Shown here: positions 4,914 to 27,282 of the stretch, piece after piece
Layout: every line of letters starts with the position of its first letter
Numbering within the stretch: the first letter of the stretch is position 1
DNA from: a virus
Length of the DNA stretch: 64,000 nt
Reading direction: 5' to 3' (one strand)
Virus record (IMG/VR): IMGVR_UViG_3300044796_000056
Coordinates: 12,221-76,220 of that record
The notes under the pieces: generated by a model
Databases searched by the model: none
Told to the model about the DNA's origin: nothing
What the model saw: only the letters and a program-made list of their open reading frames with translations
Position numbers and translations under genes: made by a program

Positions 4914-5008
4914 GCTCCATAGCTCAGGTGAGCGGGTGCGTTTTATAAGCGCGCGAGAGTGGCCGGACTGGCTGCAACGGGCAGGTTCGAGTCCTGTATG
5001 GAGTACCA
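4914..5008 (+). tRNA. Noncanonical tRNA(TAT) with long variable arm
   Basis: GCTCCAT(A)/(T)ATGGAGT, 4-nt D loop, 6-bp anticodon stem with loop TT TAT AA, long extra arm, ACCA. Confidence 0.75.
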
Positions 5009-6793: not shown

Positions 6794-7399
6794 ATGTCAG
6801 CGATGGATGTGTTGGTTGTCGATAAGGGTGGAAACCCTCGGGACTGGTTGAACTACCAGGACACCGTTAAGGCTTACGCAGAGGATAGGGTTATTTGTAA
6901 CCTAGGATCTCACGTGCGCACTTATGTCGGTGGCCGCAATTCAACTGGCAAGCTCTCTAAGATTGAGATCTCATCTATTGTTATGGTCACCGGCCCAGTG
7001 CTTGGTGAGAAGTTCAAGTTCCGTGTAACCAAGTTCGCTGAGCGTCCTATTCTGTACGCTCGTGACTGCTACATGTGCGCTTACTGTGGTATCGTCCATA
7101 AGGACACGAAGTCAATTGATCTTCATTTGACCATTGATCATGTGATGCCTCGCTCACGCGGTGGTGATCACACTTGGACGAATACGGTAACGTCGTGCGC
7201 TGCTTGTAACCACGGTAAGGCAGACAGGACTCCGGAGGAAGCAGGAATGCAGCTTCTGTATGTTCCTTACGCACCTAACCTTCAGGAGAAGCTACTTCTG
7301 AAGAACCGCAAGGTGAAGGCCGATCAGATGGATTACTTGTTGTCTGTCATTCCGAAGACTTCAAGGATTCACCAGAACGTTCAACATTTGCGTAATTGA
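6794..7399 (+). CDS. HNH endonuclease (McrA-like)
   Basis: RD..MCAYCG...TIDHVMPRSRGG..W.N.VTSC..CN..K. Confidence 0.92.
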   Translation: MSAMDVLVVDKGGNPRDWLNYQDTVKAYAEDRVICNLGSHVRTYVGGRNSTGKLSKIEISSIVMVTGPVLGEKFKFRVTKFAERPILYARDCYMCAYCGIVHKDTKSIDLHLTIDHVMPRSRGGDHTWTNTVTSCAACNHGKADRTPEEAGMQLLYVPYAPNLQEKLLLKNRKVKADQMDYLLSVIPKTSRIHQNVQHLRN

Positions 7400-7650: not shown

Positions 7651-7821
7651 ATGACGAGTAAAGAAGAGGTATGGGCCGATCGTTGCTTCGTCATGATGGA
7701 GATAAGGAATCTTGTTCCACTACTCCAGGGAGAGCTCCTTGCCCGGTACAACGAGTTCCTTCTCAAGCCGATTGAGTACCGCAACTATATTCGTGAACTG
7801 GTGATACATTATGACACGTGA
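7651..7821 (+). CDS. Hypothetical protein (56 aa)
   Basis: GAGGA SD; open frame overlapping next gene. Confidence 0.55.
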   Translation: MTSKEEVWADRCFVMMEIRNLVPLLQGELLARYNEFLLKPIEYRNYIRELVIHYDT

Positions 7822-8278
7822 CGCACAAACAATCGCAAAAGAACTTCAAGAGATCGAACGCAAGAAGCGCGACCTTCAAGATGAACAAACTAAGCTCTAC
7901 TGGGCTTCCGAGCGCTTGAAGCGCCAAGCCAAGAAGAGCACATTGACGGCTGGTAGCTGGGTGAATGGCATAGGCCAGATCATCACGACTGGAGATCTTT
8001 GTGTTGGTGTCACGGCTAACCGAGGAGCCAAAGTCACGGTTGGTACCTTTGCAGGATTCAGAGAACGTGGTGGCAAGGTCACTTCAGTCAGTCTGAACAT
8101 CATGAAGGAAGTCTATTACTACCAGACAACCGATGGTAAGCTTCACAAGCGATATCCTCTGGTTGATGGACGTAGGAACTACAGCATCTCTTACTCCAGA
8201 ATCAAGAAGCAAGAGATCCGCCGACAGTCATTCACACAGATGCGGGTTTACAAGATCCAACCGACGCAGACAGATTAA
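7811..8278 (+). CDS. Basic hypothetical protein, paralog of 8626-9150
   Basis: Shared N..G.II..GD....T...G motif and C-terminal RR......R.Y. Confidence 0.75.
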   Translation: MTRDAQTIAKELQEIERKKRDLQDEQTKLYWASERLKRQAKKSTLTAGSWVNGIGQIITTGDLCVGVTANRGAKVTVGTFAGFRERGGKVTSVSLNIMKEVYYYQTTDGKLHKRYPLVDGRRNYSISYSRIKKQEIRRQSFTQMRVYKIQPTQTD

Positions 8279-8361
8279 CGCGGCTGGATTAGCAGCCAAA
8301 CGGACGCCACACCGTCTGAGAGCCCAAGACCGGTTAAGGGTGCAGGAAATGTGGCACTGAT

Positions 8362-8602
8362 TCAACAAGTCGACCTAACGCGGCAGATAAGGATGTTTGT
8401 CGAGGAAGTTCGCGACTGGCGCAGAGGACGAGTAGGAGCGAAAGCGACAAACTACCGTGATACAGCCAGCAATCTAAACAGAACCAGGGAATCCTTTGCT
8501 TATTGGTTCGGGTTAGAGCACCCACTCAACGGAGTGGGATTGATCGAAAGGTCTTTAGGCAAATGTTAGGATAGAACAGAATCGCGGCTACGGACTTGTT
8601 GA
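8362..8602 (+). ncRNA. rnpB: RNase P RNA, compact, reduced specificity domain
   Basis: P1 TCAACAAGTC/GACTTGTTGA; P2 CCTAAC/GTTAGG; GAGGAAGTTCGCGA and AACAGAATCGCGGCTAC forming P4; P5 CTGGC/GCCAG; P6 GCAGAGGA/TCCTTTGC; P15/P16. Confidence 0.85.
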
Positions 8603-8625
8603 TAATTTATTAAGATGGAGTTAAT

Positions 8626-9150
8626 ATGGCATTGCGCAAACCAGTTGAACTTCCCTATGAGAATGATCTAGGTCACATCATCAATGTTGGTGATAAGGTC
8701 TTGATCGTAACTACCGGCTACAGTCACAGCGTCTCGGTACGCATGGGCACCTACCTGGGCAAGATCCGCGACGACAAGGACAGCGATTACGAATCTGGTT
8801 GTGTCGTGATGGTAGATGAAGAGCGCAGGGTTCTCCGTCACAAGGAAACCAATGAGGAGCTCGACTGGGAGAAACACATCGAACCGGCTACCGGTCCACG
8901 TCCTGAGTATCCCACACTACACCATGTGCAATGGCTGAGCAGAGTTCGTCTGACTGATGAACAGAACAAAGAGAATGCTGAACGCCAGGCAGCGCACAAG
9001 GTTGCCACCGATCTGTATAATGCTAAGCAGGTGGAAGTGATGAAGAACTTCCACCACGTCTATGAACCATACACTCGGCGCACAACTTTGCAGCGGAACC
9101 GGATCTATCCAGTGAACATGGGTCTCAAAGAGTTCATCCGACAGATCTAA
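8626..9150 (+). CDS. Hypothetical protein, paralog of 7811-8278
   Basis: GGAG SD; NDLGHIINVGDKVLIVTTG motif. Confidence 0.8.
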   Translation: MALRKPVELPYENDLGHIINVGDKVLIVTTGYSHSVSVRMGTYLGKIRDDKDSDYESGCVVMVDEERRVLRHKETNEELDWEKHIEPATGPRPEYPTLHHVQWLSRVRLTDEQNKENAERQAAHKVATDLYNAKQVEVMKNFHHVYEPYTRRTTLQRNRIYPVNMGLKEFIRQI

Positions 9151-9254: not shown

Positions 9255-9569
9255 ATGCTTCCGATGATCAAGTGGACGGAGAAGCGCTCCCGGCAGCGCA
9301 ACATGACCCTACACAATCACGTAGCCGTCATGGTCATCAAAGATGGCAAACGTCTTTGGGGGAAAGTTCTCAACCTTTCAATTGGTGGCGCATTGATTCA
9401 CTTTGATGAAAGTTTGGAAGCCACTAAAAACAGTCGCTTGGAACTTGTTTTCACCAACGCGCTAAATAACGGCAAGCTAGTCAAGGTCTTCTTCAAGATG
9501 GGAACTGTGATCCACATCACAGGTGGCAATATTGGTCTAGCGATAGGAAATCGAACGATCAAACTCTAA
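9255..9569 (+). CDS. PilZ-domain protein
   Basis: EKRSRQR (RxxxR) and NLSIGG (D/NxSxxG) motifs. Confidence 0.8.
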   Translation: MLPMIKWTEKRSRQRNMTLHNHVAVMVIKDGKRLWGKVLNLSIGGALIHFDESLEATKNSRLELVFTNALNNGKLVKVFFKMGTVIHITGGNIGLAIGNRTIKL

Positions 9570-9666
9570 ACCTTCCAGGAGCTCCATGCTCACCTTAATC
9601 ACCATTTCTGCTGGTATTTTGGTCACACTTTACTTCTGTGCTGTGTTCGAGTATAATAGTCGTCAT

Positions 9667-10119
9667 ATGAACAAGACTCTCTACATCGTCCGAGGCCTGC
9701 CAGGTTCTGGTAAGTCTACTCTTGCGGCCCAAATGGCCGAGGAGAAGGGTATCACCTACCATGAGACCGACCAATTCCTCTACAACGATGCTGGTGTCTA
9801 TGAATGGTCAGAGGAACGGCTGGGCCGAGCTATTGACCTTTGCTATGATCAGGTTTTGTCCAAGATCAACGACGGCAAGTCTGTGATAGCCGTTGGTTGC
9901 TACACCCGCTGGCGCGCCTTCCGTGACTATGTGGAATTGGGTCACAAGCACGGCTACCAGGTAGAGATCATCACTTGCCTGGGCGAGTTTGGATCCATCC
10001 ACGGGATTCCAAAGGACAAGTACGAGAAGATGAAGACCCGTTTCATCGCCAGCAAGGCTCTCCCTCAGCAAGCCGGTATCAAGTACACCGAGCATCTGCC
10101 AGAACCGTGCTTGTTTTGA
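9667..10119 (+). CDS. P-loop kinase (PNK/AAA_33-like)
   Basis: LYIVRGLPGSGKST; start chosen downstream of TATAAT. Confidence 0.85.
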   Translation: MNKTLYIVRGLPGSGKSTLAAQMAEEKGITYHETDQFLYNDAGVYEWSEERLGRAIDLCYDQVLSKINDGKSVIAVGCYTRWRAFRDYVELGHKHGYQVEIITCLGEFGSIHGIPKDKYEKMKTRFIASKALPQQAGIKYTEHLPEPCLF

Positions 10120-24901: not shown

Positions 24902-24977
24902 CGATGTGTAGCTCAAACTGGCTAGAGCAGGATCTCTAAAATCCAAGATCAGGGTTCGATGCCCTGCACAACGGCCA
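24902..24977 (+). tRNA. Amber-anticodon tRNA(CTA)
   Basis: CGATGTG/CACAACG, GCTC/GAGC D arm, GGAT-CT CTA AA-ATCC, CAGGG-TTCGATG-CCCTG, GCCA. Confidence 0.8.
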
Positions 24978-26201: not shown

Positions 26202-26906
26202 ATGATGAATTTCAAAGCAGCATTCAAAGCGTGTGCCGACGCCAAGGATATTTCCAGCGTTGACATCGTACAATACGCTATCCTTCGCGCCATGAAAGCG
26301 AAGACGGCTCAGACTATTGAGGACCGTATCAAGATAGCATCAACCTTTATCCGCCGGCACTTTCGTTCTGTGAAGAATAGAAAGATGCTCGATAATGGGG
26401 TTGATCCAGAAAGAGCGGTTAGGAGAGCGACCGAAATTACTAAGAGTGCTAAGGTCATCTGTGGCATTCTAGAAAAGAGTATGTTTACTGATGAACGTGA
26501 GCGCATCCTCTACAAAAACATCGCGGTGGCTTTATATGAGCAGTACAAGATCCCTGCGGATCTTTACACCAGACATTACGTCTACATCTTCGTGCGTCAA
26601 GATATGACGCCGGAGTATCAGCTAGTCCAGGCTAGCCATGCGGCGGCTCGCATGGGACAACGTCTAGGATCCAATGGCATTGACCAGGGCAAGTTTGATG
26701 AGTTGTATTTCAGTGTGATTGGTGTCCCTGATCTTCATGGTCTTGCCAAAGCATTGGAAGACTTCAAGCAGCGCGGTATCAAGACCTATCCGTTCATTGA
26801 GCCAGACATCGGAAACGTGATGACAGCATTCGCTTCCGACCCGGTTTGGTCACATGATCGTAAGGGATTGCTATCTTACAAGAGATTGGTCTTCAAGAAG
26901 GACTAA
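26202..26906 (+). CDS. Protein with C-terminal Pth2-like peptidyl-tRNA hydrolase domain
   Basis: YIFVRQDM....QLVQASHAA...F.EPD....TA....P. Confidence 0.72.
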   Translation: MMNFKAAFKACADAKDISSVDIVQYAILRAMKAKTAQTIEDRIKIASTFIRRHFRSVKNRKMLDNGVDPERAVRRATEITKSAKVICGILEKSMFTDERERILYKNIAVALYEQYKIPADLYTRHYVYIFVRQDMTPEYQLVQASHAAARMGQRLGSNGIDQGKFDELYFSVIGVPDLHGLAKALEDFKQRGIKTYPFIEPDIGNVMTAFASDPVWSHDRKGLLSYKRLVFKKD

Positions 26907-26910
26907 ATAG

Positions 26911-27193
26911 GTTTGAATGATTGTAAACGCCTGACTAAAGGCATGTTGGACTGGGGTTCGATTCCCCACGGTTCCACCAAATTTCAGGACCATGCTAGAG
27001 GGTCCATTATGGGGCCGATCGGTTTCGACAGCGTGAGTAATACACCAAGTGCAATCCGGTATGCTACGACCGTAACAGTGCAAAACCATAAATGCATCTA
27101 ACGATGACATCTATGACACCGTAGAGTTGGCTCTAGCAGCCTAACCCTCGGGTCTGAGTTTCGGCCGCTTCCTTGTAAACAGAATAAGCGGCC
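26911..27193 (+). ncRNA. ssrA: Circularly permuted two-piece tmRNA
   Basis: Acceptor piece ending TGGGG-TTCGATT-CCCCA-CGGTTCC-ACCA (26979), intervening hairpin, coding piece from GGGGCCG (27011), pk1, tag ASNDDIYDTVELALAA* at 27094-27144. Confidence 0.93.
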
Positions 27194-27282
27194 ACTCTTT
27201 AACTTAATCAGGCCAGTTTTACTCTTACAGTTTCCAGGCGTATAATAGATAATGTGAACTCCCTTAAACAAGGAAATACATT

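Follow-up and report, generated by a model that had tools for sequence, protein, structure and literature searches.

To our knowledge, RNase P RNA is seen as a ribozyme of cells that is conserved universally. Reduced forms of this RNA are familiar from archaea and from the laboratory. In archaeal type T RNA (RF02357; Pyrobaculum and relatives, ∼200 nt), nearly all of the specificity (S) domain has been lost and the catalytic (C) domain works; this RNA, an essential cellular component from an archaeal lineage, is accompanied by several archaeal proteins. Engineered bacterial RNase P RNAs consisting of the C domain only retain catalysis, especially with the protein subunit, and a C domain lacking its S domain is known from bacterial RNase P work as a weak enzyme. 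The RNA described here, a 241-nt RNase P RNA gene lying within a block of 32 tRNA genes of a T4-like phage from peat, differs from both. Compared to type T, it bears bacterial type A signatures and matches no archaeal RNase P model; its S domain was therefore lost independently. Whereas the engineered C-domain RNAs are laboratory deletions, it belongs to a gene family that occurs in nature, is conserved, and has diversified.

Rfam 15 contains no family for a phage miniature RNase P RNA, and full-text searches of the literature outside subscription journals did not turn up any description of an RNase P RNA encoded by a phage. Such an RNA is likewise absent from a 2024 RNase P review (PMC11143913), and RNase P goes unmentioned in a paper on huge phages whose genomes carry it (PMC7162821).

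The RNA gene and its locus

The window (i.e., the whole 64,000-nt stretch of DNA that was analyzed) is part of a 76-kb IMG/VR record that is 44% complete according to CheckV, and T4-type baseplate genes are present in it. The complete miniature RNase P RNA gene occupies positions 8362 to 8602 of the + strand (241 nt, from the 5′ strand to the 3′ strand of P1) inside a 347-nt gap between the ORFs at 7811-8278 and 8626-9150. The minimum free energy of 8362-8602 has a z-score of −2.97, with none of 200 shuffled sequences folding as well. R1, a covariance model that we built from 21 short phage copies, matched 8359-8605 with 183.2 bits (E = 1.6e-49), a score that includes the contribution of the window copy itself to the R1 seed alignment; this copy is the sole one within the window. 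A scan around the gene for sigma-70 promoters and terminators revealed nothing above the shuffled expectation. The stretch is also contained in a peat metatranscriptome run, where the contigs are even over the whole 12 kb and resemble those of the DNA run; the metatranscriptome is therefore uninformative on transcription or on the ends of the RNA.

A diversified family of phage RNAs

The original prediction looked to related phages for covarying homologs, and such homologs were found. Searches of IMG/VR with three patterns (a CR-I word, a CR-V word, and a CR-V pattern with the P4 bases left free) gave 55 loci, which together with phage DLP6 represent 44 distinct homologs of 198 to 442 nt; the largest of the contigs reaches 494 kb. 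The sole cultured relative detected by BLAST was in Stenotrophomonas phage DLP6 (KU682439.2, about 105,774-106,018), where the RNA is flanked by tRNA genes and carries no annotation; BLAST of cultured phages with the subfamily queries L056 and L030 yielded no real matches. Copies are also present in two published huge phages, LR756501 (735 kb) and LR756511 (595 kb). Because most of the homologs were obtained with patterns that fixed CR-V and were then passed through a CR-I filter, the invariance of CR-I and CR-V is in part a product of selection. The CR-V of the LR756501 copy is a variant, so the phage family must be wider than our sample. Standard Rfam annotation misses the family, and for this reason it is currently unannotated, including in DLP6 and in the largest published phage genomes.

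Secondary structure and covariation

Covariation was assessed in a MAFFT alignment of 30 members for the named helices P1, P2, P4, P5, P6, P7, P15, and P16; such alignments are imperfect in variable regions, and P6 is misaligned between subfamilies. Across the 30 sequences, 86.9% of the cells form standard pairs, versus 32 to 40% after displacement of the 3′ partners by 1 to 3 columns. Both-sided changes occur in 44 of the 52 pairs, and the covariation score of 0.595 compares with 0.164 for shuffled alignments, none of 500 shuffles reaching 0.595. RNAalifold, used with no structure given, recovered P1, P2, P5, P15, and P16 and reported compensatory changes in 26 of 38 pairs. All of the helices drawn in the original prediction (P1 of 10 bp, P2 to P5, an 8-bp P6, P15, and P16) are present where it had placed them, with covariation in the 30 homologs.

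The outer helices are well supported (all coordinates in this section refer to the + strand). P1 pairs UCAACAAGUC (8362-8371) with GACUUGUUGA (8593-8602) over 10 bp; both strands are backed by homolog covariation and by RNAalifold, which predicts the helix unaided, and all 10 pairs show both-sided changes. P2 joins CCUAAC (8374-8379) to GUUAGG (8565-8570) in 6 bp, with 97.2% of the cells paired and 6/6 pairs covarying in the 30 homologs. Across the 44 distinct RNAs, P2 is complementary at six of six positions despite highly varied sequences, where the 5′ strand was chosen as the best complement and may be misassigned in L064 and L076. The P3 hairpin (8380-8401; 8 bp, −5.4 kcal/mol) varies in length among the homologs.

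CR-I, GAGGAAGUUCGCGA (8402-8415), comprises J3/4 GAGGA and the P4 5′ strand AG(U)UCGCGA, in which the bulged U is at 8409 or 8410. CR-V, ACAGAAUCGCGGCU, comprises J2/4 AUAGAACAGAA and the P4 3′ strand UCGCGGCU (8582-8589), together 8571-8589, with ACG continuing the segment to 8592. The P4 strand within 8402-8415 thus pairs with UCGCGGCU in 8 bp with one bulged U. P4 is paired in 100% of the cells of the 30 homologs, with four invariant pairs and four that covary and are always compensated. Nine versions of P4 were found, including GUUCGCGA/UCGCGG, GUUCGGGA/UCCCGG, GUUCGAUG/CAUCGG, GUUCUCGA/UCGAGG, GUUCGCCG/CGGCGG, and GUUCACGA/UCGUGG. The adjacent P5 pairs CUGGC (8416-8420) with GCCAG (8465-8469), with 94.4% of the cells paired and four of five pairs covarying. 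The P6 pseudoknot consists of GCAGAGGA (8421-8428) and UCCUUUGC (8492-8499), which form 8 bp, the latter strand residing in the loop closed by P16. When the best P6 helix was sought without constraint, alternative pairings confounded the result, and a fixed-register test was used instead. For 15 distinct strand pairs, this gave 7.4 of 8 pairs with the RNA's own partner versus 4.8 of 8 when the partner was taken from another member.

In the place of P7 to P14, the P6 5′ strand is separated from the P5 3′ strand by a vestigial S-domain stub of just 36 nt (8429-8464; about 40 nt in the original prediction). It contains a P7-like helix of GUAG (8432-8435) with CUAC (8452-8455), for which 93% of the cells pair and three of four pairs covary. 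The GAAA-looped hairpin GCGAAAGC (8438-8445) lies inside this helix, and the joiner CGUGAUACA (8456-8464), which is conserved, comes after it. Other members have inserts of up to ∼170 nt at the stub position, in which Rfam recognizes no S domain. Inserts of 100 to 160 nt replace the stub in L041:3975-4282 (−), L051:335-684 (+), L080:5481-5829 (+), and L037:338-685 (−); by eye, a stem resembling that of an acceptor, a hairpin resembling a T arm, and ACCA can be made out in them. Two of these inserts enclose weak matches to RF00023 (tmRNA; L051 417-548 and L080 5563-5693), and ARAGORN called no tRNA or tmRNA in the L041, L051, L080, and L037 inserts, each of which may represent either a tRNA-like module nested in the RNA or simply a long hairpin.

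The segment at 8470-8480 includes J5/15 CAA, which occupies the position of A248/A249 of E. coli, the P15 5′ strand UCUAA, and J15/16 ACA. Its GCAA and AAACA elements vary little or not at all among the 30 homologs, and neither served to select them. P15 (8473-8477 with 8513-8517) is paired in 98% of the cells and covaries. P16 and its loop span 8481-8509, with GAACCA (8481-8486) paired to UGGUUC (8504-8509); the first four pairs are formed in 100% of the cells, and 4/4 covary. There is no separate P17 stem, and the P6 3′ strand is borne within the 17-nt loop that P16 closes. J16/15 GGG and the P15 3′ strand UUAGA follow at 8510-8517, of which GGGU (8510-8513) is invariant in the 30 homologs. 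At the position of P18 are two small hairpins (8521-8553, −14.2 kcal/mol; 8521-8538, and 8542-8553 with a GAAA loop); they are missing from most family members, where the region is gapped. A CR-IV-like J18/2, UUUAGGCAAAUG, then leads into the P2 3′ strand GUUAGG (8554-8570). For CR-IV, the window has AGGCAAAUG, the consensus of the family has AGAUAAAUG, and L008 has AGAUGAAUG; CR-IV residues are invariant or nearly so and, like those of GGGU, were not used in homolog selection.

A locus of this kind might be explained as a piece of a host rnpB gene in decay, as a resemblance due to chance, or as a portion of the 72-aa ORF at 8351-8569, given that the ORF overlaps the RNA and the window copy has no Rfam match, but we consider this reading vanishingly improbable. 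Compensatory changes preserve every helix in 44 distinct RNAs on unrelated contigs, and this covariation excludes it. The ORF is open over at least 80% of the RNA in just 2 of the 44 homologs and is for that reason incidental. Scanning 185,579 bacterial and archaeal species genomes likewise failed to find the family: it gave seven matches, none of which was a real member or lay inside an Rfam-recognized RNA.

Relation to bacterial RNase P RNA

The expectation that Rfam covariance models would recognize the RNA held for larger relatives and failed for the window copy. Searched in gathering mode and at E values of up to 10, the copies of the window and of L003 had no RNase P match, archaeal models included. 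In contrast, L025 678-1117 matched positions 1-367 of RF00010 with 37.2 bits (E = 4.9e-8 in a nine-locus search and 4e-10 in a 561-nt search), and L064 8556-8917 matched the same model positions with 36.5 bits (E = 8.6e-8 in the nine-locus search). These scores are far under the RF00010 gathering score of 100 bits, a threshold that the window copy also fails to reach. The ends of the RF00010 match in L025 and L064 coincide with the P1 boundaries drawn here, and the alignment passes over the S domain (144 model positions) and P18 by local ends. R1 also matched copies outside its seed (L080, 183 bits; LR756501, 129.6 bits; L025, 110 bits; L064, 75 bits); because it matches all three, the window copy is tied to the Rfam-matching L025 and L064. 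When R1 was applied with filters off to the E. coli rnpB locus, it placed its match on the exact rnpB interval but with a nonsignificant score of 2.7 bits (E = 0.54).

We compared the phage RNA with E. coli M1 RNA by motif positions, having discarded local alignments of window segments to rnpB that gave spurious placements. The motifs aligned to rnpB were GAGGAA(A)GU, GCAAG(G)CCAAA(U/C)AG, CGGGU, AGAUGAAUG, and ACAGAA...GGCU. G61-C71 of M1 RNA (GAGGAAAGUCC) corresponds to GAGGAAGUUC in the window, which has one A fewer, matched by the loss of a U in GGCU(U)A; thus, relative to type A, CR-I of the phage RNA is shorter by one A and its P4 3′ strand by one U. G246-G259 (GCAAGGCCAAAUAG) corresponds to GCAAUCUAAACAG in the window and GCAAGCCAAACAG in DLP6. 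CGGGU at C290-U294, which includes GGU at 292-294, is the same in the phage RNA, and we take the window GGGU to be equivalent to G291-U294 of E. coli, where the 3′ CCA of tRNA is bound. A328-G336 (AGAUGAAUG) corresponds to AGGCAAAUG in the window and is identical in L008, and ACAGAA at A347-A352 recurs in the window J2/4.

The RNA thus has in common with type A (RF00010; M1 RNA/rnpB, 377 nt) P1 to P6, the P15/P16 internal loop with GGU, CR-I, CR-IV, and CR-V, along with the P6 pseudoknot that reaches into the loop past P16, the bulged pyrimidine of P4, and the J5/15 adenosines. It differs in having 241 nt rather than ∼350 to 400, in the 36-nt stub that stands in for P7 to P14 including CR-II and CR-III, in the absence of a canonical P17 and, apparently, of a canonical P18, and in being phage-encoded rather than cellular. 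On this comparative evidence, the RNA of 8362-8602 is a conserved structured RNA and a homolog of the class A RNase P RNAs of bacteria. The proposal that it is a phage-encoded, reduced RNase P RNA with a vestigial S domain is borne out by the covariation of P4 and P6 and by the RF00010 matches of the larger members; the reduction is strong, but the type A C domain is complete.

tRNA context and proposed function

Same-strand tRNA genes are located within 3 kb of the RNA in 42 of the 44 distinct members. The RNA starts within 25 nt of a tRNA 3′ end in 13 members and ends within 25 nt of the next tRNA in 16; at such abutting loci, the ends of the RNA would come from tRNA-processing enzymes. In the window, the RNA is separated by 866 nt from the closest upstream tRNA and by 560 nt from the closest downstream one. 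The window has 32 tRNAs plus a tmRNA; CCA is encoded by all 32 tRNAs, U is present at position −1 in 27, and the leaders are short and AU-rich. Encoded CCA and U(−1) are the features that M1 RNA reads by its GGU loop and a J5/15 adenosine. The nucleotides that are functional in M1 RNA have been kept, namely the GAGGAAG/bulged-U core of P4, J2/4 ACAGAA, the J5/15 adenosines (A248), and the P15/P16 GGU. From these conserved catalytic nucleotides and the gene context, we infer that phage pre-tRNAs, and the tmRNA named in the original prediction, would be cleaved, and we regard the RNA as quite probably a phage type A RNase P RNA reduced to its C domain that trims the 5′ leaders of phage pre-tRNAs.

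Such a ribozyme would be made together with the phage tRNA array. Pre-tRNAs would dock via the acceptor stem alone. The T-loop/D-loop elbow of a tRNA cannot be measured by an RNA from which P7 to P14 are gone. The encoded 3′ CCA would pair with the GGU loop and U(−1) would contact the J5/15 adenosine, after which the short AU-rich leaders would be cut at the P4 metal site. An S-domain-less enzyme with no T-loop-reading elements, only a 36-nt stub in their place, could also accept other RNAs, and its main substrates might then be non-canonical: minihelices of acceptor stem and CCA, other structured RNAs of the array, or phage mRNAs. We view this version of an active ribozyme as unlikely. About 30 of the 32 annotated tRNAs in the window have canonical T-loops, the features expected of ordinary substrates are encoded with the frequencies given above for CCA (32/32) and U(−1) (27/32), and the gene sits amid ordinary tRNAs at 42 of 44 loci. 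The same T-loop count leaves unsupported the rationale of the original prediction that losing T-loop recognition would suit many RNAs with aberrant T-loops.

Affinity of the trimming ribozyme would probably depend on a protein, most likely the RnpA of the host. The surface on which RnpA docks (P2/P3, CR-IV, CR-V, and P4) is retained in the phage RNA, and RnpA (PF00825) was absent from the record of the window and from five complete carrier genomes in a search that was positive for 10 of 14 control bacteria. We lean toward a hybrid enzyme in which the S-domain-less phage ribozyme and host RnpA would mature the tRNA arrays independently of the host RNase P RNA, with specificity relaxed to the acceptor stem and CCA. 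The conservation of the RnpA-facing regions P2/P3, CR-IV, and CR-V, the lack of a phage rnpA in those genomes, and the weaker turnover to be anticipated in the absence of an S domain would also suit a non-cleaving mimic of RNase P that holds host RnpA or pre-tRNAs and thereby redirects or shuts down host tRNA maturation during infection. We find that reading a little more doubtful still than one of non-canonical substrates, for the nucleotides that perform the chemistry and place the substrate (the bulged pyrimidine of P4, the J5/15 adenosines, and GGGU) are invariant across a very diverse family, and a decoy has no need of them or of a P4 that is 100% paired.

If the RNA is indeed a pre-tRNA-trimming ribozyme, it would be the first RNase P from a virus and, among natural RNase P RNAs of the bacterial type, the smallest, reduced in parallel to type T but independently of it, and a ribozyme would join the translation-related genes known in large phages. 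The family would constitute a natural C-domain-only series, from ∼200 nt upward, that tests the need for the S domain, and would offer compact RNase P scaffolds that are convenient for studies of structure and mechanism. One would also have to ask why phages that carry numerous tRNAs do not depend on the enzyme of their host.

Neighboring genes and other features of the region

Clustering of the ORFs within 2.5 kb of the 44 copies revealed no protein family common to the neighborhood; the top clusters were short spurious frames over the RNA or over tRNAs. The two ORFs that flank the RNA in the window have no Pfam or PHROG function and no mutual similarity by tblastn (E of 1e-3). The downstream ORF (8626-9150, +; 174 aa) is 31% identical to AAY80_165 of DLP6 (cf. 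L001:934-1455, +), the gene for which is directly upstream of the DLP6 RNA copy. This likeness may reflect the synteny of related phages rather than a partner of the RNA because the homolog was not found beside other copies. The 83 nt from the upstream ORF to P1 (8279-8361, +) fold into two hairpins with a z-score of −1.82, little better than shuffles; this hairpin stretch has no counterpart in DLP6, where the RNA begins 7 nt past the upstream ORF.

The tmRNA of the window (26887-27235, +) is of the permuted, two-piece type (RF04321, 129 bits), with the tag peptide ASNDDIYDTVELALAA assigned by ARAGORN. In contigs of the CATCG subfamily, a one-piece tmRNA (RF00023, >120 bits) is found within ∼1.2 kb of the RNase P RNA copy (L038:5523-5903, +; L033:9098-9482, −). 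A lone tRNA with a CUA anticodon, of the amber suppressor type and labeled Pyl by ARAGORN, is located at 24902-24977 (+), apart from the main array. The tRNA-Ile (UAU) at 4914-5008 (+) has 95 nt, and the DLP6 array includes a tRNA-Ile-TAT of 92 nt. Interleaved with the tRNA/RNase P RNA region on the + strand are genes for an HNH endonuclease (6794-7399), a stand-alone PilZ-domain protein (9255-9569), and an AAA_33 kinase-like protein (9586-10119).
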